Of a stretch of 64,000 bases of DNA, positions 2,396 through 59,230 are shown one piece after another. The notes under the pieces were generated by a model. It was given only the letters and a program-made list of their open reading frames with translations, ran no database searches and was not told the origin of the DNA. The DNA lies in NCBI GenBank assembly GCA_951406725.2, contig OX597823.1:60698001-60762000 (forward strand), in the 5' to 3' direction. This DNA is from Octopus vulgaris. Its lineage: Eukaryota. The stretch's first letter is position 1. Each line of letters begins with the position of its first letter. The translations under genes were made by a program, and so were the position numbers.

Positions 2396-2809
2396 CACAC
2401 ATTGCATGTACATGCACACGCATTTATATCTGATATTCTACATTTAAATTTGTAAAGAGTAAGAATTCTTCAGTTTCTTTTATCATTGTTATTGTTATAC
2501 AGAAGGAACATAATAATCCTGATGCTTACATCCTAGTCTACTAAGCATGTAATCTTAAGTTTAAACAATACCACATTCATTGTAATGTGGTTCTGAGGAA
2601 CCCCATTTGCTTGAATAAGAAAAAGGGAAAAAAAGCAAACAAAAAAAGCAAAGGTTCTTTATTTATTTCATGGTTGATTAGTTGTAGGAGAGGCTTTTAA
2701 CTCTAAAAGTAATTACTCTATGAAAAGTCATCCTATCCCATCCATGAAAGCCCTTAAAACATTTCTTGCAAAGTAGATTTTTGAGAGGAAACAATTTCTT
2801 ATTTTAAAG

Positions 2810-2945
2810 CTGGTATTTGACTGGCATTTTATTTTAATAATCCCAGAAGGGATGAACAACAAAGTTTACCTCAGCAGGATTTGAACCCGTTTTGTTTAGT
2901 GAGGGTGTTTTGTCTGGCAATCTAATGATTCTGCCTAGCTAAGTT
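2810..2945 (-). mobile_element. Degenerate Nin/Deu-domain SINE (family B)
   Basis: GGGATGAAC..CAAAGTTTACCTCAGCAGGATTTGAAC matches the reverse complement of family B. Confidence 0.6.
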
Positions 2946-3099
2946 GGTAGATCATTGGGTTTCAAAAAATCCTTAAATGGCAGATAGCCTTCATTAATTA
3001 AAATCTCATTAATGCTATTTTCTTTTATTACAATAAGAAAACTTAGGAGACATAAATGTCTAATTTCCCTTCCCCTTCTTGTATTCTGTTAGAAACCAG

Positions 3100-3545
3100 A
3101 AGAAATGATGGCATGTCAGACTAAATACCTCCTGGTAATTACAAGTTTTTGCATTCTGAGTTCTAATCCTACCAGAGTTGACTTTTGGCTTTCAGTCTTC
3201 TAGAGTCAATTAAACAAGTACTGGCCAATTACTGGTGTCGGTTACAGTTTAACCCTTTAGCATTCAGATTACACTGTCAAATGTAATGCTTATTTGTTTA
3301 CAGTGTTTTGAATTAATCATGCATTATTTTATGGTTTTTGAAATTTTGATGATGTGATTGTTTATTTTTAGAATGATATTACAGGGTAGGTATGAGAGAC
3401 TGAATTTGGCCAGTGTGAACATAAATCAAGTAGAATATTTGGGTTGGATGTGGTCAGGTTTAAATGCTAAAGGATTAACAGACAGTACCCTACTCCTAAA
3501 TATTCAGATCACATGCCTATGTTGCCATGTTGAAATTGAATATCA
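3100..3545 (+). mobile_element. Degenerate family B SINE split by a TTAA MITE
   Basis: TTCTGAGTTCTAATCC..GAGTTGACTTTTGGCTTTCAGTCTT; the SINE 3' part resumes after 3478. Confidence 0.6.
3253..3474. mobile_element. piggyBac-like MITE
   Basis: TTAA|CCCTTTAGCATT ... AATGCTAAAGGA|TTAA: terminal inverted repeats with a TTAA duplication. Confidence 0.8.
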
Positions 3546-12329: not shown

Positions 12330-12882
12330 CAGGTTGGCATTCGGAAGGGCAAACAGCCCTAGCATTTGTCTTCTGAAGAAAGGCTGAAGACGCTCGACCT
12401 TTGTTCTCTAGAAAAACGCCGCCGCCATGGTGATCTCATTCTCGCTCATAACATTATAAGTGGAAAGTGTAACCTCTTGAAAGGGCTGTTCTTCACTCCT
12501 GCTCCAGAGCGTCAGCTGTGGGGTCACCCTGAAAAGCTCTATCTGCGACGATTTCATCTCAATCAAAGGAGAGGGGCTTTCTCCGTCCGGGTTGTGGATC
12601 TGTGGAATAAGCTGCTGGATGAGATAGTGAAGATGCCGACGACTGTTCGGTTCAAAGTCTCTCTTGACCAGAAATGGCCTGAACTCTTTGCATGAACACC
12701 CTCCCTGTACAATAACTCCATGTCCCTCTACATGGCCTTGTTTTTGCTTTTTGAGCCAAAAAATTAACTTAACTTAACAAATCAGACTGGAGTCTGGTGC
12801 AACTGCCACCAGCTTGCCAGCTCTGGTCACACTGTCCAACCTATGCTAGCATGGACAGCGGATGTTAAATAGTGATGATGAC
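12330..12882 (+). mobile_element. RTE 3' tail fused to the U6 copy, interrupted by a CR1 fragment
   Basis: GGTTGGCATTCGGAAGGGCA.. (12332-12360) resumes as AAATCAGACTGGAGTCTGGTGC..ATGCTAGCATGGA..GATGATGA (12779-12882). Confidence 0.8.
12360..12778 (+). mobile_element. 5'-truncated CR1-like LINE (ORF2 C-terminus and tail)
   Basis: ORF 12366-12695 EERLKTLDLCSLEKRRRHGDLI...GH..KL...FSVRVVDLWNKL...FK..LD is the typical CR1/L2-group C-terminus; (TAACT)n tail. Confidence 0.85.
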
Positions 12883-43309: not shown

Positions 43310-44209
43310 CAAAATATGGACAAAATAATGGAAACACCTTAAAATTTCAAACAAATTTATTTTATTTGGCTTCTACAAGGTATGGACATGTACAAAGTTT
43401 GAATTGTTTCCAAAGGAATTTTTGTCCATTCTTCAACTAAAACAGTCTCCAGTTCTTGTGATGATGGTGGAGGATATCAGCTCTTTACTTGTTTTTCTAA
43501 AATGCTCCATAAATGTTCAATAATATTGAGACCTGGGGACTGTGGTGGCCAGATAAGATGTTCAACTTCACTAGAATGTTCCTTGTGCCATTCAGTAACA
43601 ACTTTAGCTGTGTGAATTGGTGCGTTATCATCCTGAAAGAAACAGTTCCGCAACCATAGGATGAATTTAATCTACTCTAAATGCTTTGCAACATTTGTTT
43701 TTGAAAATAGTGGTTTTCTGATGGCAGCCCGCCCATAAAATCCAGCTTTGTGCAGCTTCTGGTGAACAGTTTTTGTGGAAGTGATCCCTTCTAACAATTC
43801 GCGTAAGAGTCCGACGGTCTCTATCTGAAAGTTTTGGTTTTTTCCAGAGTTTTGTTTCGACGAGGAGGCATTTTTCGCCTCTTTCTCAAAGGCTGTCATT
43901 ACTTTTGAGATAGTACTTCTTAATACACCAAACATTTCAGCTGTTTTCATTATGCTAGCACCTGCCATAGAAGCACCAACAATTTGACCTCTTTGAAAGT
44001 CTGATAGATCTGTCATTTGAATAAATTTTATTTACCTTTTTCTGATGATATCTGAAAAGAAACAGCAATTTTAGCAAAACATGTTAAGCAACACTTAAAC
44101 ATAAAAACATAAAAATAAATAAGCTTTTATAAATAAACAAGGTTTTATAGATATTTCAAAATTATGATGCTATGATGCTAGGTTTTTCGATTATTTAGTC
44201 CAACTCCTG
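43310..44209 (-). mobile_element. Deleted Tc1-like DNA transposon
   Basis: ORF 43672-44016 MTDLSDFQRGQIVGA..HTH; downstream QDDNAPIHTA and WPPQSPGLNIIEHLW; inverted repeats GGACAAAATAATGGAAACACC / GGTTTTTCGATTATTTAGTCC. Confidence 0.9.
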
Positions 44210-46761: not shown

Positions 46762-46949
46762 TATATTCTAAACTCACCTTGTTACTGAAGAAATATACAA
46801 GCAAATAAAGAAATAAAGACGAACGAATATCCTGCAGTTGGTTTGAATAAAAATTTGTCTTCTCAATCTCTTCAGAATGATTTGTTCTTTCTGTTGATAC
46901 ACTTTGTGAGACACCCCATACTTGCTGAATGAATCTTATCTAGAGATTT

Positions 46950-47320
46950 GAAGATTCACAATTCCTTCTGGCTGTTTTATTCTTCTTGTAAAGATTCAAC
47001 CAATTCAACAATTGAAGCCTTTCACACATTCTACACACTTGACCTTTCCTCTCTTCCAAAACTGAACAATTTCTCCTGCACTTCAATACTTCTCACCACA
47101 TTTGTAGTTCTTCTAAAATGGCAATGGAACATATATACTGAATTTGTACCTGTGTTTGAAATTTTGTTTTCTAGTTTTTTTTTAAATTTGCCAACTGTTA
47201 AATTTTTTTAACCACTTTTATGCAGACACTCTCTGGCATCAAGTGTTCTTCTATCTTGTTTTCACTGAAACAACTCATTCTTTCAATTGCAAAATTACTC
47301 AGTTTTTGAAGATATTTTCT
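46950..47320 (-). pseudogene. EVC2: EVC2-like C-terminal exon remnant
   Basis: gttttag|RKYLQKLSNFAIERMSCFS.. (human ILKKTCLPLRERMIFS) and ..VQEKLFSFGR (47058-47075; human TGEKLFIFRN); frameshift in an A7 run. Confidence 0.65.
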
Positions 47321-47482
47321 CTAAAACATGCAACATCAATATAGAAGACATAAGATGTTCTTCAAAAGCTTAGTGACTGGTGTATTGATAACGACTGATA
47401 ATCCTTTTATCTCTAATTAAGATTACCGCAATGAGGGGCAAAGTATGTTTCTGTCATCATATGCAGCTAGAATAATTTTCAC

Positions 47483-47559
47483 CTCCTTTTCCCTGCAATT
47501 GCATATTTCTAGTCCCTTGTCAAACTATCTCATCTAATTTTGAATTATATTCTTTTTTT
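47483..47559 (-). pseudogene. EVC2: EVC2-like exon remnant
   Basis: atag|..EYNSKLDEIV*Q/GLEICNCREKE|gtgaaa versus human DGKLRGDLISRGLEK. Confidence 0.55.
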
Positions 47560-47607
47560 CTATATTATGAAAATTTAAAAAAAAAAACCTATTAGTGATT
47601 CATTGAC

Positions 47608-47775
47608 CTCTCTCTTTAATTTTCTCATTTGTCAAATTAGCTAAATTTTCCACACTCGTTGCCAAATATACAAGACTCAACACTGTGCATGTTGTCTGTG
47701 TAGTTAGGCTGGCAAGACTGAGATGTTCTTGAATTCTCTTTGAAAAATAGTGTTCTTGCTGGGAAAGTTGATCTT
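47608..47775 (-). pseudogene. EVC2: EVC2-like exon (still open, 168 nt, phase 1-1)
   Basis: ttttttatag|EDQLSQQEHYF..LASLTTQTTCTVLSLVYLATSVENLANL|gtcaat versus human LCSQELRL..MAMVPGATLRRLLSVVLPTASQPQLLALL. Confidence 0.65.
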
Positions 47776-47827
47776 CTATAAAAAACATTCAACGAAAGAT
47801 AGGTTAATGTTGCATTCTCTTATTTAC

Positions 47828-47989
47828 CATTCTCAGCTAACTTTTAAAGACCTGTTTTTGTGTATATAAATGTAAGTACTGTTCTTGTGCTGTGGCATCA
47901 CTTTGTTATGTTTTAAGTCAGAACTACTAAACCCTTTTATTTGATGCCTTTATCACAGCTGTACATAGTCTTTATTTTAGAACATATAA
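47828..47989 (-). pseudogene. EVC2: Exon remnant with stops
   Basis: tgtttttttag acceptor and G|gtaaat donor; LYVLK*RLCTAVIKASNKR; phases compatible with the neighbouring exons. Confidence 0.5.
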
Positions 47990-48108
47990 CTAAAAAAACA
48001 AAAAAAATATGAAACATTGAACTACTAGCTCTGAGTGTAAGTTCATATTCTATTGTAGATTTTCTACCCTTGTGCAAATTTTTCAGTTTTTCTGAACAAG
48101 TTACTTAC

Positions 48109-48248
48109 AACATCATATTGAAGGAGAGACTTCTCCCTTACATCCGACTGGTTTAACTCATTATCATGTTTTGTGTGCTCTTTCTGTTGTGTCACTTTCA
48201 TCATAAAATTCCTCTATATTCCTTGTTTCTGAGATGTCAGTTCTTTAT
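48109..48248 (-). pseudogene. EVC2: Exon remnant with a single in-frame TAG
   Basis: aaatag|xKELTSQKQGI*RNFMMKVTQQKEHTKHDNELNQSDVREKSLLQYDV|gtaagt. Confidence 0.55.
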
Positions 48249-48279
48249 CTATTTAAAATATTTCTCACTGAGTTTATCG

Positions 48280-48622
48280 TTTACTTGTTTTCAGACATTA
48301 GACTGTGGCTATGCTAGGGTAATGTTTTAAAGAATTTTAGATGACTGAATCCCTCCCCCACCAGTGCATGTTATTTTATTAGGCCTAGTGTTTATTGTAT
48401 TGGTCTCTTTTGCCAAACCACTAAGTTATAGGGACATAAACACACCAACACCACTTGTCAAGCAGTGGTGGAGGATAAACACACACACACACACATATGT
48501 TTCTGTCTACCAAATCACTCATAAGGCTATAATAGAAGACACTTGCCCAAGGTGGAATACAGTGGGACTGAACCTGGAACCTTATGGTTGAGAAGCAGAA
48601 TTCTTACCATACAGCCATGCCT
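48280..48622 (-). mobile_element. Family A SINE (internally deleted)
   Basis: TTACTTGTTTTCAG..GAAGACACTTGCCCAAGG..CAGCCATGCC. Confidence 0.8.
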
Positions 48623-48816
48623 GGTTTCTATAGCATGCTTTTTAATCATTGTTTAGTAAACTTAGTTATTCTTATTTTGGCAATACTGCTAATAATAATG
48701 ATAAAAGTAAAAAAAAAAAAAAAAAAGTGAAATATAGAAAGCATTTTGTCAATCTTCTTTGTACGATTATATTGTCACCAAAAAGAAGAGGAATTCTTTC
48801 ATATTCGATTCCAAAC

Positions 48817-49700
48817 CTCCTTTTTGTCAGTTGTTTCAAATCCACTGCTAATTTTGTAGCTAGTAATTTTTTTCAGATGAATTGTGGAATGATCATAATT
48901 TCTTAGATAATTTACTAAGTTAGATAAATGTCGAGACAGAATTCTTCTTTCAGTAAGATAGAATGTATTAACATTGTCCATTGTTGTATAAAAAAATGCG
49001 TATTTCAACATCTAAAGATGCCAGAAACTGATAATTATATGCTAATCCCTACTATCTGCTAAATTTGATTCCATAATCAACTTTTGTCACAGTGTTATTT
49101 ACAATACGCTACTTTGCAGTCAATTGAACATAAGAAGTTGTAGGCATATTAATACTTGTTGTCTTTTGCTTGTAAGCTTCCAATTTTTTCCTCCCTGCTA
49201 TGTTATTTTATATAAACCTTCTTAGAGGAATTTAGAATGAAATATTTAAGCCCTTTCATCTTGTGCTGTTCCTATCAATTTGGCTATCATAATCCTAACT
49301 ACAATCGTAAGTTTTACGTCATGTAAGAGGAATTCATATTGAAAAAGATCAGTTCTTTGTGTAGAAGACTTTTCTTTATGAAATTCTATGGTTTTGATTT
49401 TTCAAATATTTTTCTCTTATTTTTTACTTTTTTTTTAATGTTTTGGTTTAAGGTTTCATTTCATTTTTTTTTCTTTCTGATTTTATTGTCATTATTTTAT
49501 TTATATTTTCTCCGTCTATGTATATCATTATCTTGGCTAAGTAACCATTGTGAATTTTTGAATAAACATTGGCTAATAACTCGAGTCTACAGTTCCTTGC
49601 AAAACTTTTGACTTTTACCAAAATACATAAAAGCATCTACTTTGTAAGCTTTAGATTTGAAGTTCAATGTGTTGTTCTAAATGGGATAGAAGAACATTAG
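48817..49700 (-). pseudogene. EVC2: Several EVC2-like coiled-coil exon remnants
   Basis: KSKP*NFIKKSLLHKELIF (human KSKGELLKKCIEDKIHL), REEKIGSLQAKDNKY (LRERVQRMEAQEGGF), LIHSILLKE (SIQDLLLEE); acceptors at 49701 and 49012. Confidence 0.5.
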
Positions 49701-50489
49701 CTGAAAACAGTCAAGATAATAGCATTCAATAAAAGATAACCATTGAATTAATCTTCATTTATTTAGAGCATCAGATATGTTATGAAATGAACATCATGTG
49801 CACTAAAATTGATGTAAATCATTACACAAAAGAAGCATAATGAAGATTAAATAAATGAACCATATCCAGACATTGACGAACATCTTTTCTTTTTTTTTTT
49901 CCTATTATTATTTAAGTGAAATATAACTTTAGAGTGTTTTACTTATCCTATACTTCATTTTTATTTAAAAATTATGACAATCATTATAAACTTGTTTTGT
50001 GACTAGAAAACTTATATTTTATTTGATATGTATAATTTCCTAAAAAGTTCTTTTAAATTAAATCTACTAATTGTCCTATTTTTCCCAGACAAATTATAAT
50101 CTATCCATAATTTGTATTCAATCTCTATCCTAACATACAAAGAAAGAATTTTTGAATACAATGATTAATTGCAATTCTATTATTTTAAATCTTTTTCCAT
50201 TTTTTTTTTTTTTACAAATAATATTATTTAATTATGATTGACAAAATTCAAAGTTTTCTTTGCTCATTTTAATTTTTAAATTTATGGCATTTTGTTAAAA
50301 CTTAATCAGGACAATTTTCATCATCCACTAGTTTTTAATATTTGTTTTTCCAAGATGCCAAAATATTTGAAGTCTCTAAAATCATACATTAAGGGGTAGG
50401 GGGTGGGGAGTGTGTGGGGTGGGGAGGGTTAGAAAAGAAAAGAAGCAAAAGTCCAATTTGTTAAGCTGAAAAAGTTTAATAAAATAGGT

Positions 50490-50690
50490 ATTCCAGTTAT
50501 CTCTAATTTTATATAGTTTCTTTTCTTTTCGCTTCTTAAGATAAGACTGTGTAACAAATTTTGATTTTGAATCTCTTGCAACTTGACATTTATCTTAACA
50601 GGTTTCATATTTCAGCTTTTTCAGCAATCTCCATAATTTTTTCTTTGTATAACTTGGAACTTTTATTGCTATTGATTTGATTAATTTTTC
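50490..50690 (-). pseudogene. EVC2: EVC2-like exon remnant
   Basis: EKLIKS..KKLWRLLKKLKYE / KINVKLQE..LHSLILR versus human THLIQK..DQMEMLLERAQTE / SIKQKLDN..LHQKLITK. Confidence 0.5.
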
Positions 50691-51299
50691 AGTTATTAAG
50701 AAGTCTCAGCCATTGAAAAATCATTCGTCCATTATCTATCAAACCATGTTTTCATATTTATTGGAAAAGGAAATGTATAAAACATAAAATATGTTAATTA
50801 CACAATTAAATGTGTGTGTGTGTGTGTAGCCATATCTGAACATTTCTACTTAGCTACTTCAGATCTGGTAAAACTTTAAGAGTATTGGAACGACTTTTAT
50901 TATTTCCAAAAATAATTTTAGTTTTGACAGTATTTTCTTTGTAGCGTGAAATCAAATTACTTTATTATATAATCATCTTTGTAGGTTACATCTATCTTAA
51001 GTACAGGTTAAATCCAATGTGAAGAAATCTGTTATTACATTCCAAGGCAGGGATCGTACATCTTGTAAATACCATCTTGATCAAGGTATGTAACCACTCA
51101 CCTTAAATACAACACATCCCTCTTCAAAATGTCAAGAAACCCTGTATTACTTCTGAACAGCACCAGTGCTTTTCTAAGTGCATTTTAACTGAATATAGCA
51201 CTTCGTTACCAACAATCGTCACTCCCAGTTAAACATAATTTACAATTGCTGCCAAAGTCGATACATTCACCCCAGCCTTTGCACCTCACTCTACACATG

Positions 51300-51510
51300 C
51301 TAATATTAATTGTTGTCCTTCATCACTCGTTTCACTAAGAGATCCAAAAGACCGGTTGCACTTGAAACTTTGAACAGGCCAGATAATGTACCCAAAAGAA
51401 GTGTACTCATATCTGTTGCTGCTCAACTTGCTGCATTATTCACCAAACCATTCCAATTCAGTTGTTATTCAGCCAATTTTCTTCCTTCGTGGATGGATGC
51501 CAATACCATC
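51300..51510 (+). mobile_element. Old Jockey/CR1-like reverse transcriptase fragment
   Basis: RPDNVP..VLISVAAQLAALFTKPFQFS..PSWMDA resembles the GPDGIP..LK.CA.ELA.PL..LF..S..P..WK.A motif. Confidence 0.6.
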
Positions 51511-51800
51511 TCTGTATTAATATCTCCAGTGTTATGGGAAAATAACAAATTCCTATCTTGCCTAGGAAGAGACTTGTTTTTTAGTGATAAGGATGGAATT
51601 TAATTTAATAAATAAATAAACAAATAAATAAATAAATGGAGATGAAGCCGTAACTCTTTAGTACAAATGGCCTGCATTCTTAAAGCACCATTCTAAAAAT
51701 AGCATGCTTTCTCTTTACAGGGACTTAGAATTTTGATAAAGTATATTATTCGACTCTTATAAAAAACTACTTTTGTTGGATATCTAAACAAGCATCTTAC

Positions 51801-51950
51801 GTGAAGATTTTTTAAAATAATCTCAAAAATATTCCAGAAATTTTGTTGTATTCAATGAAGCCATTTCCAAAATTTTCTCTCTGCCTTTCAACAATGAACT
51901 TTATCTGGTGAAAGTGCCCTCTAGATCTACACTTCCATAGAACCATGCTG
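51801..51950 (-). pseudogene. EVC2: EVC2-like exon remnant
   Basis: HGSMEV*I*RALS...KAERKF versus human HGLEQEHLRKSLA...KAHRQL; donor CAC|gtaaga. Confidence 0.5.
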
Positions 51951-52016
51951 TCAGATGTAGCTGGTAATGAAACAGTGATATAGGGAATGTTTGAGCCTCA
52001 CACACAGAATTATATC

Positions 52017-52245
52017 AATCCCTTTAATACAGATTGGCCTGAAACTGTCTTTGATTCTAGGATACAAACACTACTGTTTTAAAGTGATCTAAATAAGAAT
52101 TCTTTCACCAAAATCTTATGTTAATTTGTTTCAGACACCAGCTTAATTATCAGAAAATTATTTTACTAAATACTTGATAATTTTTTAAAATTAATTGAAA
52201 CAAAGGTAATATATTGCAGCACAAATGTGATAACAAAAGGGTTAA
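52017..52245. mobile_element. TTAA-type MITE
   Basis: CCCTTT...AAAGGG|TTAA ends; similar to 8649. Confidence 0.55.
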
Positions 52246-52264
52246 ATTGAAGCAGTCTGCAATA

Positions 52265-54368
52265 TAGTCTTTGGCAATACCATTGTTATGCTTTCATTAT
52301 TCTGTGTAACGTTCCTTTTTTTTATTATTTTAGTTTCTTCAGTTTTTGGGTGAACCACACTAATAACTTTTGAATGAAAATTGTCCCTCTAGACATTTTT
52401 TCCCCAGAAAATGAAGGGTAATGATCCATATTAGGCATATATATTGAGTATATATTTAACAGAAAATCATAATAATGTTATAACATTTTTTATTGACATA
52501 ATGAATTATGTAGACATATGAGCGTCATTTTGACGGATAACTTCAAAAACCCTATTAGTCATGGAATCTGCCAGTTGCTTAATAGAAGCAGGTTGGATTG
52601 CCTCTGCTGCAGCTTTCACGGTTGCCCATAAGACATCTCATCATCATCATCATTGTCGTTGTCATTTAACGTCCACTTTCCATGCTAGCATGGGTTAGAC
52701 GGTTTGACTGAGGGCTGGCGAGACATAAGGCTGCACCAGGCTCCAATCTGATCTGGCAAAGTTTCTACAACTGGATGCCTTTCCTAACGCCAACCATTCT
52801 GAGAGTGTAGTGGGTGCTTTTTACATGTCACCAGCACAAGAGCCAGTCAGGTGGTACTGGCATCGACCACACTGAAATGGTGCTTTTTACGTGCCTCTGG
52901 CACATGAGCCAGTCAAGCGGCACTGGCAACGATTATGATTGAATGGTGCTTTTTACGTGTCACCAGCATGGGAGCCAATCAGGTGGCTCTGGCAACGCTC
53001 ACACTCAAATGGTACTTTTAACGTGCCACTGGCACAGGTGCCAATCAGGTGGTACTGTCATCGGCTATGACAATGATTTCACTTGTCTCAACAGGTCTTC
53101 ACAAGTGCAGTTTATTGCCCAATGATTGAAGGGTACTCTTAAATGGGCTGGTTATGCTGTACTGGTATAGGCCATGGTTACAGTCACACTTGGCTTGCTG
53201 GGTCTTCTCAAGTACAGCATATCTCCAAAGGTCTCAGTTAATTGTCATTGCCTCGGTCAGGCTCAATGTTTGAAGGTCCTGCTTCACCACCTCATTCCAA
53301 GTCTTCCAGGGTCTACCTCTTCCACAGGTTCCCTCTACTGCTAGGGTGTGACATTTTTTCATACAGCTGTCCTCATCCATTTGCAACACATGACCGTACC
53401 AGTGCAATCGTTTCTCTTGCACCGAAAATTGGTGTCTGTCAGCATAGACATATTGTTTAATGATGGACCAAAGATTTTTGATAGGGTTGAGATCCGGAGA
53501 TGCTAGTGGCCACACCATCAACCTTTCTTATTGTATACCGTAAGACCCTAGAAATGTTTGAGTGGTCCTAGCAGAGTGGGAGGAAGCATTGTCAGGCATG
53601 AATACGAGATTCCTTAGAAGTGACAGTAGTATGTCATATAGCCAGGGATCCAAGACCTCCTTCAGGAGATTACAGTAGACCCTGACTGGGCCAACAAGTT
53701 TGTCCCCAATGATACCAGCCCACAACATGGTTCCTCCACCCTGTTGTTGACGTTGTAAATGTTGGGGATGCTTATCTCCAAAATAGACCCAACCATTTGC
53801 CCAACTGTCAGGTTCGTCAAGGGTCACCCTGGTTTCGTCAGTGAACAGAACACAGCTTAAGTCTAATATCATGCACATTTGGGCCCATTGAAGCCTCTAA
53901 CTCCTGTAAGGAAGGCAGTTTCAGGGGTTCTCATATTGAAGCCATGGTCCCAAGGATGCGATTTCTGGTGGTTTTTCTACATGAGGAAGTCTGGAGGTGG
54001 TGAAAATGGCTTTGCTTGTTTGTCCAGGCTGCCCACATAATTTGTGGCCAATATTCCTTAAATGCCTAGCTGTCACAGTCTTAGAGGCCCCACAATCGGA
54101 TCGTTTCTTCCTTGGTGCTCATGTGGCTAAATAATTCATTATGTCAATAAATGTTATAATTTCATAATGGTTTTCTGTTAAATATATTCTCAATGTATGC
54201 TTAATACGTATCATTATCCTTTATTTTGTGAAAAAAAAATGTCTACATGGGCTATTTTCATTCAAAAGCTATTAGCGTGATACACCCCAAAACTGAAGAA
54301 TCTGAAATAAAAAACAAAGGACATTACACAGAATAATGAAAGCATAACAATGGTGTTGCCATAGTGTG
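52265..54368 (-). mobile_element. Tc1-like transposon with about 240-bp terminal inverted repeats
   Basis: Inverted repeats about 52265-52509 and 54131-54368; VLFTDE, MLWAGI, FMPDNASSH and WPLASPDLNPIKNLW motifs, disrupted. Confidence 0.9.
52638..53425 (-). mobile_element. 5'-truncated RTE LINE inserted into the Tc1 transposase
   Basis: VQEKRLHWYGHVLQM..GRGRPWKTW; 3'-UTR with four ~62-bp tandem units (52810-53080) and a (GAT)n tail. Confidence 0.9.
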
Positions 54369-54459
54369 CAAACCAACTGGGAAATGTTTAATTGAAATTG
54401 ATTCACAGAAAACTGAGAAATCCTAAATTTCACTCCTAAGCTATTAACATCGTTCTGGG

Positions 54460-54736
54460 TGTGAGTATATGTGTGTGTGTGTGTGTGTGTGTGTCTATGT
54501 ATTTATGTGTGTGTCTCTTTGTGTCTGTGTTTATTCCTTTCCATCATTGCTTGACAACTGATGTTGATGTGTTTACATCCTGTAACCTAGCAGTTCAGCA
54601 AAAGACCAATAGAATAAGTACTAGGCTTACAAGGAATAAGTCCTGGGGTAGATTGCTGCAATTAAAACTCCTTTAAGGCAGTGCCCCCAGCATGGTCACA
54701 GTCAAAATGACTGAAAGAAGTAAAAGAATAAAAGAA
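54460..54736 (+). mobile_element. Family A SINE 3' half
   Basis: GCTTGACAACTGATG..GACTGAAAGAAGTAAAAGAATAAAAGA. Confidence 0.8.
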
Positions 54737-54764
54737 TTCCTGTAATGATGCTAATTATCTGTAC

Positions 54765-55190
54765 GAAAATATAATTGATATTTTCTGCTTCTGCGATACT
54801 TTTCCAGTGTCTTCTATTGCTCTGGTTTTCATATCCACCACTAAAAGTATTTGATTCTTCCTCCATAAAGTGTTATGTGATGAAATATGTAAAAAAAAAA
54901 GAAAAGAAAATATTTAGAAAATATGAAAAATTGTCTCTTGTAAAGAGTATCCCTGGGGATATCTCTCCTTCTCACTGCATAAGAAGACGCTTGTTTCAAA
55001 GCCATTGGGTAAAACCACTTCCCACAGTTAAAGATACTTAAATTTTGGGTAGATATATCTGCTTTCTGCATTGAAAGGGTTAACATAAGCAAGCTTGTGA
55101 CCACTGTGTAAATCAGAACTCTTTGTGAATGATATTTTGGATTGAGTTTCTTTTTTGCCTTCTTGTAAATATGAATCCACAGAATGTTAC
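54765..55190 (-). pseudogene. EVC2: EVC2-like juxtamembrane cytoplasmic exon remnants
   Basis: SQRVLIYTVVTSLLMLTLSMQKADISTQ versus human ACRTQISKDIIALLLKNLTSSGHLSPQ; VDMKTR versus CDLETR. Confidence 0.6.
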
Positions 55191-55815
55191 CATAAGGTCT
55201 GGCACCTATAGTCAACTACCAGATGAACTGAAGCATGTAAAAGAAGAGTATTCTTCTTAAAAACAGCAAAAACACCTGCATCAGGCTTGAACTCACAATG
55301 CTTGAGCAGGTGGGTGGTTATCCAATATCATATTCACTCAGCAGTTTTGCTTGTGTATTCAACCCACAATAGCATGGAAAGGTAGTCATGAAAAGGTTTA
55401 TGATAATCTGTATTGTAAATGAAATTGATATATCTTTTATTCTTTATCTTATAGCGGTGGGGGCAGTTATGGACACATCCCTTCCCTCGAAATATAACTT
55501 TAAAAAAATATTTCCATTATTATTCATACATTTTATAATAGAGCTAAAGGTTATCATCTACCAATGCTATCATAGCAAAGAAAGTGACAAAAGCCTTTGA
55601 CTTTTGATGTTTTCATATCTGAAAGTTGTCAGTATTAATATTACTTTGCTATTGTTAAAGCGAGGTCAACTAAAAGTTGTTCCTTCTAACTATGTCAAAA
55701 TCATTTCAAATAAAACACTTTTGCAAACAGAGCAAAATACTGCTGTTTTATTTAAGAGGCTGGGAGGTGGTGGAGGGATATATATATGTATGTATGATGT
55801 ATATGTGCGTGTGCA

Positions 55816-55850
<35 letters not shown>

Positions 55851-56686
55851 CTATATATATATATATATATATATACTCATATATATGTTGTATATCTGTA
55901 TATCTATGTGTGCGTACATATACATATATGTATGTATAAGTGCTCTCACACACACACACAAACATGCACACAAACACACACGCACAAACATGCACACAAA
56001 CACACACACATATGCATATACATGTGTGTCAAATGTTTAGCAGATTAGAAGGTCTCTGCTAAAATATAAATATATTTTAAAGTTATATATGTAGACACAT
56101 ACATACAAATATATCTATATCTATAAATATATATATATATATATATGCACACACACATACACACACATGTAAGTATGTGTCTCTATGTATGTCTTTATGA
56201 TGTATTTTAGCAGAGACTAATATGCTCAATATTTGGCATCGATAAGTTTCTTTTCAAATTTAAGTCTGATGTAAAATTATGGTCGATATGTGATTAAGTT
56301 TCAGACTTCTTTGATTGTATGTCATAGATTAACGTGAAGCCGTTTGATTCAGTTTAATGAGCTAAATAGTTAGTGAGAAATATATGAGCATTTCTGGTGT
56401 GGTTCTTTTACTCTTTTTTTGGAAGATATATTTTGTTTCCCCAGATTTCTACAGTCAAATAAATACTGTATCTTCCAGCATACAACTGACATTGTGTATA
56501 TTGTTAAATCGTAGTGTAAACATTTGAATGTTATCTTTCCAAATCCTGCTGCATTTTATATGGAGTTTTCAGTTTGCAAATGCCATCTTTGTGTATAAGT
56601 AAACCTACATTTTTGACTGCAAGTTTTAGTGTGAAAAATTCAACTTGCATGCAGCAAGCCAAAGTAATATTTTTGTGTGTATATTG

Positions 56687-56892
56687 ATTTCAAATTTTGG
56701 CACAAGGCCACCCATTTTGGTGGAGTGGGTGAGTCAATTACATTGACCCTCAGCATTCAAATGGTACCTTTTTTTATCAATTCCAAAGGGATGAAAGCAA
56801 AGTCGACTGTGGCAGAATTTAAACTCACAACGGAAAGATGGACAAATTGCAGTATTTTGTCTGACATGCTAATGATTCTGTCAGCTTGCCAT
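56687..56892 (-). mobile_element. Family B SINE
   Basis: TTTCAAATTTTGGCACAAGG..GGGATGAAAGCAAAGTCGAC. Confidence 0.8.
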
Positions 56893-57059
56893 CTTTTTTC
56901 ATTTTTTTGTGTGTATATTAAATTATAAAGTTTTATATCTGTAGGTAAGCAGTTTCAGAAATAAAAGAAAGGTGTCTCTCTTCGGTGTAGGAGGTTAATG
57001 GATTTATATTTGCACAATTCAAGAAAAGAACTAGGTTAGAGTAAAGGGTAAAGGGTGAA

Positions 57060-57358
57060 GACCCCTTTTGGTCATGAATGACCATGGGATTGTTCCTAGG
57101 AAATTCCCCTCCGAGGCACAAGTCCTGGCAAGGTTGTTTATGGAAGAACAGCCTCCCCTCTCCATGTCACCAATGTTATCTAAGGGCAAGGCAATGGCCA
57201 ATACAGCTTGGCACCAGTGATGTTGCAACTCATTTCTACAGCAGAGTGAACTGGAGCAACATGAAATAAAGTGTTTTGCTCAAGAACACAACACATAGCT
57301 TGGTCCGGGATTTGAACATATTGCCTCTTGATTGAGACCTCTAACTACTGAGCCATGT
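57060..57358 (-). mobile_element. tRNA-derived SINE (family C-related)
   Basis: GCTCAAGAACACAAC..GGATTTGAAC..CTAACTACTGAGCCATGTG. Confidence 0.75.
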
Positions 57359-57729
57359 GTTAGAATAATACAACCAAAATATAACTGTTGCGTTGTTTTC
57401 AGATTAGAAAAGTTACAGAGCAAAGTATCATTTGAGAATACATGTGAAAGGTATTTCTTCCTTTTCTTTGTTTTTCTTTTTGTTAGTCTGCTCATGCCAT
57501 TGGAACAGTTAGGTAAATATATACAGCTAGCAGATAGAGACATTGACACATGTAATGAGTCACTCGGTGCTTCTAAAATGACTGAAAATTATTTTCCATT
57601 GTAGTTTAGAAACCAAATTAGATAAGATATTTTCCAAGAACATTTTAATTGTCTTTTATTTTAATTACTTTTTTTCAGTAATCAAACAAATTCATTTACT
57701 TTATTCCTGCTATGGTTAATCTTTTTTTC

Positions 57730-57980
57730 ATTTCTTCAACTTGTTTCAGTTATTTGGCTGTGGCCATGCTGGGGCACCACCTTTGAAGAGTTTAGTTGAA
57801 CAAATTGAACAAATCCAGTGCTTATATTTTTAAGCCTGGTACTTATTCCCTCAGCCTCTTGCTGAACCACTAAGTTGCAGGGATATGGGGACATAAACAA
57901 ACTGTGAGTCATACGGTGAGGGAGAGGTAACACAAAGACATACACACACATGCAGACACACAGAGATACACACACACATA
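57730..57980 (-). mobile_element. Family A SINE 3' half
   Basis: CTTGTTTCAG..GGCCATGCTGGGGCACC. Confidence 0.75.
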
Positions 57981-58528
57981 TATATATGTATGTATATATA
58001 TATATATCTGTCTATCTATCTATCTATCTATCATCATCATCACTATTTAACATCTGCTTTTCATGCTGGCATGTGTTGGATAGGAGCTGGCTTGGCAGGA
58101 TACTGCACTGAGTTTCAGTGTTTGTTTTAGCATGGTTTTTATATCTGACACAGACACTGAAGCTTGGTACATCCTTCTGCCCAGCCAGCTTCTGTTGAAC
58201 TGTCCAACCCATGCCAGCATGGAAAGCAGATAGGAGGGGCATTAATATATATGACAAGTTTCTTTGAGTTTCTGTTCACAAAATCCAGTGACAAGGCTTT
58301 AGTCAGGTTGGAGGCTCTACCAGAAGATACTTCCCCAAGGTTTCTCACAGTACCCCTGGAACCAAGGCCACAATGTCAGGAAGCAACCTATGATTAACGT
58401 TAAAGAAAATTTTTTAAACCAAATGCTTTAAAAATATCTCTGATTTAACATCATACTTTAACCAGTTAGATAAAGCAAACCCATTACTGGTGAGAAATCT
58501 AAGTAATATTTAAAATATGCGATTGTTT

Positions 58529-58574
<46 letters not shown>

Positions 58575-58599
58575 TGTGGATCCTCAGTTTAGTCTAACT

Positions 58600-58888
58600 C
58601 AGCCATTCCCAACATTTTTTTGTAACATGGACTGGTCTCATGCAAGACAATTTCTCTACAGACTGGGATCACTCACATAAAGTGCATAATATATAATTTC
58701 ATTATTACATATATAATTGTACGTATATATTACATAGATAATGCATATATAATGCAAAAATTCTTTGCAGACTGCAAAAGTCAATAAAATAGAAGAAGAA
58801 TTTTAAAATGTATTTTTTCTGTTTGATCTGGTACCAAATGGTCCTCAGCCTGGTACTGGTCCATAGCCTGGTGTTTATAGACCCTTGG
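58600..58888. mobile_element. hAT-like MITE
   Basis: CAGCCATTCCCAAC ... TTATAGACCCTTG resembles CAG.GGTCCCCAAC..GTTGGGGACCCCTG hAT ends. Confidence 0.5.
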
Positions 58889-58899
58889 TCTAAATGGCA

Positions 58900-59230
58900 A
58901 ATACACAGTCCTTCTTAACTTAATAGGCAAATTAATCATAAAATTAAAATAATCTACAAACATAAAAATTATTGTAAATGTTTCCATGAACCATAAGGGC
59001 TCAAAATTCTTGTTTCTGGATTCTGTAGCTTACTGCACTTGAGAGATAAATTCAATCCCAGCTAGCATACCAGGTAACATTCTCAGAAGGTCACATTCCT
59101 ATCCTCTGTAGCTTAGTGAACTATGACATGTATATTTATGTATTCTGCTGAGAGGCATAGCGAAATGCAAACAGTGACCACATGCTGGTAGTTTAATACA
59201 TTATCCACTGAACCATTTCAAAATGATGCA
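58900..59230 (-). pseudogene. EVC2: EVC2-like extracellular-domain exon remnant
   Basis: INIHVIVH..E..L...GLNL / ETFTIIF / INLPIKL versus human ARIWLLVN..ELLL...GLTI / DAFAVSY / LKLPAQL. Confidence 0.45.

Follow-up and report, generated by a model that had tools for sequence, protein, structure and literature searches.

A probably decayed, gene-like exon chain in the octopus genome and its putative identity as EVC2

Introduction

The question at this locus is whether an octopus has lost the ciliary gene EVC2 and still carries its remains. EVC2 (limbin) is described as the ciliary membrane partner of EVC (PMC3052239, PMC10413113). Both genes are reported lost in arthropods and nematodes, and a gastropod retains both (PMC3052239); with EVC2 present in that gastropod and in two annelids (PMC9695228), an ancestral copy is expected. 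A sequence-only reading of 64,000 nucleotides of Octopus vulgaris DNA (the window) proposed a fossil EVC2 gene on the minus strand, on the strength of short words in N-to-C order matched by hand to human EVC2. Our preferred reading, which we hold with a little less than even confidence, is that the minus strand at 46.8-48.3 kb holds a dead, single-copy, multi-exon gene, putatively EVC2, with genuine stops that for the most part recur in a relative. That this DNA is a decayed multi-exon gene is likely; EVC2 as its identity stands slightly below an even chance.

Results

Candidate exon chain

The five downstream segments of the sequence-only reading (48248-48109, 47989-47828, 47775-47608, 47559-47483 and 47320 onward) are present, with GT or AG at all nine quoted boundaries:

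48109..48248, minus strand: candidate dead exon a, 140 nt; donor good (94th percentile) but acceptor weak (28th), purine content 0.64
47828..47989, minus strand: candidate dead exon b, 162 nt; acceptor at the 100th percentile, donor at the 94th
47608..47775, minus strand: candidate dead exon c, 168 nt; no stop in the chain frame, carries the VLSLV motif
47483..47559, minus strand: candidate dead exon d, 77 nt; acceptor at the 67th percentile, donor at the 97th, purine content 0.73
46778..47320, minus strand: candidate dead exon e, 543 nt; 4 stops in 181 codons, ending in a very strong donor (46778)

Ranked against every GT or AG site in the 64-kb window, all four chain donors fall between the 91st and 97th percentiles; the five acceptors rank 28th, 100th, 90th, 67th and 84th, and the donor at 46778 reaches the 99.9th. 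The claim of mostly compatible phases holds from 47989 to 46778, which reads without a frameshift, but fails for exon a, which misfits the frame of the rest of the chain (1, 5 and 6 stops in its three frames), and for EKLFSF, which does not read in the frame of ERMSCFS. In exon e, ERMSCFS sits in the chain frame; this exon is possibly two, separated by a 37-nt GT-AG interval at 47149-47113.

The segments had also been described as riddled with stops, and they are: joined from 47989 to 46778, four segments give 316 codons with 10 stops, compared to 20 and 24 in the other frames (binomial P = 0.008, or 0.024 over three frames, with boundaries picked post hoc). Exon b contributes 4 stops in the chain frame and exon d 2, while exon c has none there (4 and 3 in its other frames). 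A further candidate exon at 46672-46653 was discarded; it is located at a jump in depth and by eye resembles a transposon end.

Was this ever a gene?

Purine content is 60% in the proposed exons and 49% in the introns, and the purine-rich segments alternate with T-rich GT-AG gaps of 48-162 nt, with phases compatible across three junctions. A phase-aware gene model gave the chain a score of 28.6, exceeded in only 10 of 701 other windows (21.9 on a fixed grid, with 23 windows above). Without prompting, its path included four of the nine quoted splice sites, among them both boundaries of exon c and the donor of exon a; it skipped exon d. The places that outscored the chain and were inspected by eye were purine runs or transposon-like frames. 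The helical-protein composition score of the chain was exceeded in 8 of 476 windows.

Three of six intrinsic tests were negative. A splice-chain test without phase found the chain unremarkable (323 of 1004 other windows were equally good), and a codon-usage model trained on 2493 codons from spectrin and myosin exons of this genome, and confounded by G+C, gave it a score of 2.0, which is no signal. A fewest-stops test returned 11 in the chain versus 14.7 ± 3.3 (P = 0.17). The splice matrices were generic approximations, not derived from this genome.

These results bear on the view that the stretch was never a gene, and that exons, phases and motifs reflect pattern-seeking in unique AT-rich intergenic or intronic DNA. 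It is favoured by the negative tests, by positive ones that reach only P of about 0.01-0.03 for a stretch chosen post hoc, and by motif scores under the random level with some motifs inside a repeat (below); the neutral change and lack of splicing described later fit it equally well. The alternation of purine-rich segments and GT-AG gaps with compatible phases, and the several identical boundaries found by an automatic gene model, argue against it, and we regard it as unlikely, at about one chance in four.

Upstream pieces

The fossil gene had been extended upstream through pieces near 49-50.7, 51.9, 54.8-55.2 and 58.9-59.2 kb. The following features lie there:

49150..50770, minus strand: possible upstream pieces (about 50770-50500, 49821-49642 and 49260-49150), single-copy apart from short matches
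51801..51960, minus strand: possible upstream exon, 160 nt, single-copy; acceptor at the 97th percentile, donor at the 98th
53237..53896, minus strand: DDE transposase remnant between the proposed pieces (Pfam DDE_3, E = 3e-11)
54745..55096, no strand assigned: dispersed repeat, about 350 nt in length and belonging to no gene; at least 40 other places, 69-86% identity
55097..55260, minus strand: unique DNA, without a repeat match, carrying RVLI, with SLLM at the repeat edge
58901..59230, minus strand: unique DNA in which INLPIKL follows an acceptor-like site at 58953 (95th percentile)

Gene-like signal was absent from four windows covering 49-52 and 54-55.7 kb. The stretch 49150..50770 showed no coding or gene-model signal and no Pfam EVC2_like match, and 55097..55260 gave neither a Pfam EVC2_like nor an Atlas match. 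The possible exon at 51801..51960 has 2, 1 and 5 stops by frame, the quoted HG..KAERKF frame holding most, and a contig of run X16 is identical over 51818-52057. Inside the repeat at 54745..55096 are DMKTR, at 54835, and half of the second quoted motif, LS..ISTQ. A repeat adjoining 58901..59230 starts at about 58900, its matches confined to 58900-58780. Rfam gave no matches over 44-62 kb.

Is it EVC2?

Eight peptides had been matched by hand to human EVC2: INLPIKL, RVLI..SLLM..LS..ISTQ, DMKTR, HG..RAL..KAERKF, EKIGSLQAKD, VLSLV..TS, ERMSCFS and EKLFSF. All are on the minus strand in the order given; the likeness itself fared worse. The quoted motif pairs total 180 BLOSUM62 points and were beaten by the collinear eight-match chains of 12 of 12 random 1308-residue proteins (means of 268 on the whole region, and of 211 and 232 on exon-like segments alone), although this is a severe null, giving unspecified positions a score of 0 and placing no constraint on spacing. 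One and a half of the eight motifs fall inside the repeat at 54745..55096, which indicates that by-eye matching misfires here; a further by-eye match within the repeat was likewise false.

The order and spacing of the C-terminal pieces may resemble those of vertebrate EVC2. Several more short words from the unique segments presumably follow the order of human EVC2 near its intron positions, above all the last intron, whose place relative to these words is putative. The last intron of human EVC2 is reported to come after c.3659 (PMC10756976).

Resemblance to EVC2 extends to the helical-protein-like composition of the C-terminal segments, but neither Pfam EVC2_like nor any protein matched the chain significantly. 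In 44 read-through segments (27 + 17), Pfam found no EVC2_like domain (PF12297), at low power given broken pieces of 30-90 residues, and Pfam on 150 of 315 selected ORFs over a 204-kb span found transposase domains only. HMMER with 47150-47800 against cluster representatives of 1.84 billion proteins returned nothing at E ≤ 0.001; three segments used in word-seeded searches of longer proteins gave 557, 141 and 308 candidates, all of them above E = 10. One PDB search returned no matches and another a single weak, unrelated one (E = 0.49). The Atlas, queried with one stop-free ORF, gave no usable match, and a metagenome scan with exon c gave 593 pattern matches, of which 0 were confirmed. These blank searches weigh little, because the pieces are short and broken.

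The tail and the surroundings of the chain may also depart from EVC2. The W-peptide of mouse EVC2 is described as having an FV motif, a basic RRKKN motif 17 residues on and its end 35 residues past FV (PMC10413113). In the chain, the similar words F-S-F (47066) and K-K-N (46987) are 79 bases apart in different frames; the nearest basic word after EKLFSF is 26 codons on and in another frame, and the chain frame extends about 95 codons beyond EKLFSF, up to the donor at 46778. Invertebrate tails may differ from that of the mouse. A signal peptide and one transmembrane segment precede the coiled-coil regions of EVC2, and the gene is described head to head with EVC in snail, amphioxus, sea urchin and vertebrates (PMC3052239). 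By eye, neither a signal-peptide exon nor a transmembrane exon was picked out here, and no intact EVC partner was found upstream by codon score (200 kb) or Pfam (150 of 315 ORFs), to both of which a decayed EVC is invisible. Codon score and Pfam likewise found no neighbouring gene that could serve as a synteny anchor.

The chain may be the decayed gene of some other helical or coiled-coil protein (for instance EVC, one of the EVC3 paralogues, or an unrelated protein that may be octopod-specific), its EVC2 words being coincidental. The gene-like signals are mute on identity, the frame runs well past the point at which the mouse protein ends, and EVC3.1 and EVC3.2 paralogues have been reported in invertebrates (10.1101/153437). 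Against this, no other family matched in any homology search, and the putative word likenesses would point specifically to the EVC2 C-terminus. We consider another gene improbable, roughly a one-in-four prospect.

Copy number and reality of the stops

The stretch 46800-48300 is single-copy DNA, and 49050-52050 is single-copy except for three matches of 41-90 bases. Were the chain a duplicate pseudogene, an intact EVC2 would lie elsewhere in the genome. The genome-wide EVC2_like profile search worked on single exons, with a permissive initial step and four candidates scored, and gave nothing over the cut-off; it also missed the CPLANE1 Joubert domain and can therefore miss divergent genes. However, no second copy was found at the DNA level, the best other match to exon c at the protein level in the genome had E = 5.6, and the three weak genome matches to EVC2_like were rejected as noise (stop-containing, low-complexity or repeat-like). 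A duplicate is very unlikely.

An intact gene disabled by assembly errors is effectively refuted, as contigs of other runs, including some under another organism label, carry the same stops. These contigs agree with the assembly with 0-8 differences over 240-1180 bases. Of sampled 31-letter words, 92-94% were present in runs under the same organism label from two studies, one of which may be the source sample. In contigs under another organism label, 2 of 405 bases are different in a part with four or more stops in every frame; over about 1180 bases, which take in a segment with five or more stops per frame, the differences come to 8 letters and 2 gap letters.

Most chain stops are common to a relative about 5% diverged (organism E): in the compared part, from an incomplete list of differences, 7 of 9 chain-frame stops are unchanged. 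Both stops of exon d also occur in organism E, while two of the four in exon b are sense codons there, and the acceptor AG of exon c is altered. Substitutions were similar in proposed exons (21 of 651 bases) and introns (15 of 418; P = 0.73), in a small sample from that same incomplete list. At 47255-47261, organism E has a net 7-base gain that joins the ERMSCFS and EKLFSF frames; we dropped the reading of this as an ancestral repair because a tandem duplication of 15 bases, perfect and apparently derived, occupies that place in organism E.

No RNA run was listed among those containing the sequence. Contigs from two runs, guessed to be RNA but possibly DNA, continue through three predicted introns without splicing. 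Among the 15 joint rows listed of 102, each of the 15 touching repeats, there was no spliced contig, which weighs neither way. The stretch 46.8-48.3 kb is likely dead, single-copy, neutrally drifting, gene-like DNA with no sign of assembly error.

Discussion

Unitary pseudogenes such as primate GULO and UOX are anchored to working orthologues via alignment and synteny. The octopus chain is like them in its single copy, apparent exon-intron skeleton, stops common to related species and neutral change, but it differs from them in this anchoring and is far more decayed. If it is a dead gene, putatively EVC2, function would have been lost before the split of this lineage and organism E. Neutral drift would have followed, with repeats and a transposon inserted among the 5' pieces, and the remnant would yield no protein and have no present function.

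The sequence-only reading went further, to a decoupling of Hedgehog signalling from the cilium in cephalopods, for which we find no support. EVC and EVC2 are described as tissue-specific regulators even in mammals (10.1101/153437), and EVC was reported as not found in two annelid transcriptomes that retain most other ciliary components (PMC9695228). Open exons matching Dzip-like_N (Dzip1-like) and tectonic are present in this octopus genome and look intact. Losing one anchor protein would not prove that signalling had left the cilium, and single-gene losses from the EvC complex are already known in other protostomes. Cuttlefish arms are reported to be patterned by Hedgehog and Smoothened (PMC6581508), and the extent to which invertebrate Hedgehog signalling depends on the cilium is described as an open question (PMC9695228). 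Our literature search found no paper on cephalopod EVC2; Pusapati 2014, on the evolution of EVC, IQCE and EFCAB7, may list lineages that lost EVC2.

Should the EVC2 identity be false, the locus would be of little interest, either a dead gene without a name or simply non-coding DNA. If it is true, protostomes would have lost an EvC-complex gene independently once more, as arthropods and nematodes lost EVC and EVC2 (PMC3052239), but here in a mollusc and with a remnant still visible, from which the loss of this ciliary Hedgehog gene could be dated. That a fossil octopod EVC2 was lost after the split from other cephalopods along with EVC, IQCE and EFCAB7 is doubtful, at a little less than one chance in five. 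If such a joint loss of the EvC zone did take place, octopus and squid would form a natural pair for testing the need for this zone in invertebrate Hedgehog signalling.

The proposed exon chain and tests of its coding signal

The sequence-only reading proposed a dead EVC2 gene from five minus-strand segments.

Proposed exons of the chain
48248-48109 (-), exon a
47989-47828 (-), exon b
47775-47608 (-), exon c
47559-47483 (-), exon d
47320-46778 (-), exon e

These segments carried AG/GT at all nine quoted ends, as claimed. The four donors ranked in the 91st-97th percentile among the window's GT sites, while acceptor ranks varied between the 28th and 100th. Gap lengths were 119, 52, 48 and 162 nt, and purine content was 60% in proposed exons vs. 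49% in gaps. Exons b to e joined into 316 codons without frameshift. This frame contains 10 stops, and the two alternatives contain 20 and 24 (P = 0.008; 0.024 over three frames). The claimed phase compatibility held for the four joined segments, which share one frame, and not for exon a, which is out of frame.

Six intrinsic tests of the chain were split, three positive and three negative. The low stop count of the joined frame was one of the positives. Only 8 of 476 other windows had a higher helical-protein composition score, and 10 of 701 exceeded the chain (28.6) in a phase-aware gene model; on a fixed grid the chain scored 21.9, with 23 windows above. The gene-model path used donors 48109, 47608 and 46778 and acceptors 47989, 47775 and 47112, leaving out exon d and the 47320 acceptor. 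These positive P values are optimistic, because the stretch and its boundaries were picked after the fact. Phase-free splice chains were as good in 323 of 1004 windows (439 once composition was added), and no signal came from codon usage (score 2.0) or the fewest-stops test (11 vs. 14.7 ± 3.3). Among the upstream pieces attributed to the same gene, those in windows spanning 49-52 kb and 54-55.7 kb gave no signal in the three tests scoring them. We consider a decayed gene at 46.8-48.3 kb probable; that the chain was never a gene is unlikely.

Identity of the probable decayed gene

All eight peptides quoted as matching human EVC2 were found, in the order described. The motif pairs total 180 BLOSUM62 points. 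All 12 of 12 random proteins matched to EVC2 in length outscored this with a collinear chain over the whole region (mean 268), and likewise when confined to the exon-like segments (means 211 and 232). This null ignores spacing and gives unquoted positions 0 points, so the shortfall makes the motifs insufficient rather than false. As proof of EVC2 they fail, scoring below random chains and lying in part inside a repeat.

54745-55096, dispersed repeat of about 350 nt (at least 40 copies, 69-86% identity)

The repeat houses DMKTR and the LS..ISTQ half-motif, and its purine-rich inner part mimics an exon. A further by-eye EVC2 match inside it looked equally good and was rejected as dispersed repeat. 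The HG..KAERKF frame has 5 stops where its alternatives have 1 and 2, and EKLFSF lies outside the chain frame. Tail spacing at the locus is unlike that of mouse EVC2, for which PMC10413113 gives FV at 1185-86, RRKKN at 1202-06 and the end at 1220.

The Pfam EVC2_like model, suggested as a check, gave nothing above cut-off genome-wide, nothing at the locus and no match on 44 read-through segments. HMMER against 1.84 billion representatives was blank for the chain, as were three word-seeded searches, PDB and Atlas searches and a metagenome scan, all of low power on broken pieces of 25-60 residues. The genome-wide search with Pfam models likewise missed the CPLANE1 Joubert model and found open exons of two ciliary families.

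Open exons for Dzip-like_N and tectonic (two loci), on contigs C6 and C7 of this genome (G000)
G000:C7:46917063-46918600
G000:C6:134985398-134985934
G000:C7:116074987-116079892

No intact EVC2 copy turned up in this search, which also missed CPLANE1 Joubert. Further short words in unique DNA follow what we take to be the human EVC2 order, and the last predicted intron lies near the presumed place of the human one, its position relative to the words being likewise assumed. On these presumed resemblances EVC2 is the leading, if tentative, candidate. A dead gene other than EVC2 is unlikely. The donor of the human last intron is tabulated at c.3659 (PMC10756976). The prior for EVC2 is reasonable, since the gene is known from a gastropod, where EVC is its head-to-head neighbour (PMC3052239), from two annelids (PMC9695228) and from sea urchin cilia (10.1101/153437), and since no intact copy was seen here.

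Copy number and probable decay

The interval 46800-48300 has no other copy in the genome, 49050-52050 has only three short matches elsewhere, and no second protein-level copy of exon c was found genome-wide. Same-organism-label runs from two studies, one of which may be the source sample, contained 92-94% of sampled words. Contigs labelled organism D differed at 2 of 405 bases over stop-rich 46825-47229 (at least 4 stops in each frame), and an organism A contig was identical over 51818-52057. The stops are genuine, with near-identical letters in contigs of other organism labels, and assembly error is rejected. A duplicate pseudogene is very improbable.

A contig from organism E, a relative, covers 47009-48290 and departs from the window at 62 letters (about 5%). 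Among 40 of 131 difference rows listed, 36 were used (three lying beyond 47040-48108 were set aside, as was one that involved several contigs); changes fell on 21 of 651 exon and 15 of 418 intron bases (P = 0.73). In the listed rows, 7 of 9 chain-frame stops were unchanged and 2 were sense codons in E. The exon c acceptor is lost in E. Equal exon and intron change and common stops fit inactivation followed by drift: the gene would have been inactivated before the lineages of the window and E split, and would have drifted in both. At 47255-47261 organism E also carries 15 bases duplicated in tandem, a net gain of 7. At 47432 a 10-base insertion is shared by E and one organism A run, which may mean that the window holds a deletion allele.

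Genomic surroundings

The window belongs to a 118-Mb contig (C10) of the 2.8-Gb genome and is AT-rich, with microsatellites and short repeats throughout. Codon scoring of 404 kb around the locus picked 16 ORFs, by eye transposon-like or low-complexity, and a Pfam search with 150 of the 315 ORFs selected in the inner 204 kb gave transposase domains only; neither provided a neighbouring gene to anchor synteny. Over about 400 kb (G000:C10:60558001-60962000) no intact protein-coding exon was recognised, although short exons would escape. This region would be a gene desert, or else one very long intron. Other elements were observed.

53237-53896 (-), DDE transposase remnant (Pfam DDE_3)
43480-44031 (-), DDE transposase remnant (DDE_3 and HTH_Tnp_Tc3_2)
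52813-53070, tandem array, 66-base unit, 3.7 copies; similar array near 2700-3240 of another stretch examined (L017)
12363-12692 (+), 110-codon ORF, by eye resembling a retroelement protein's end; unmatched in Pfam at E<=0.01
L012:9200 to L013:1000, two further stretches (G000:C10 ~60851200-60853000), local duplication of about 830 bases, purine-rich repeats

Hedgehog signalling and the EvC complex

The proposed decoupling of Hedgehog signalling from the cilium does not follow, even if the EVC2 identity holds. Mammalian EVC and EVC2 are tissue-specific regulators (10.1101/153437); annelid transcriptomes with most other ciliary components retained yielded no EVC (PMC9695228); cuttlefish arms are patterned by Smoothened-dependent Hedgehog signalling, cilia being unmentioned in the portion available of PMC6581508; and this genome has the Dzip-like_N and tectonic exons. 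No report of EVC2 in cephalopods was found in the literature searched, which did not include the principal study of how the complex evolved. If true, the finding would add an example to a familiar class, unitary pseudogenes, and lengthen by one the list of EvC-complex genes lost in protostomes.
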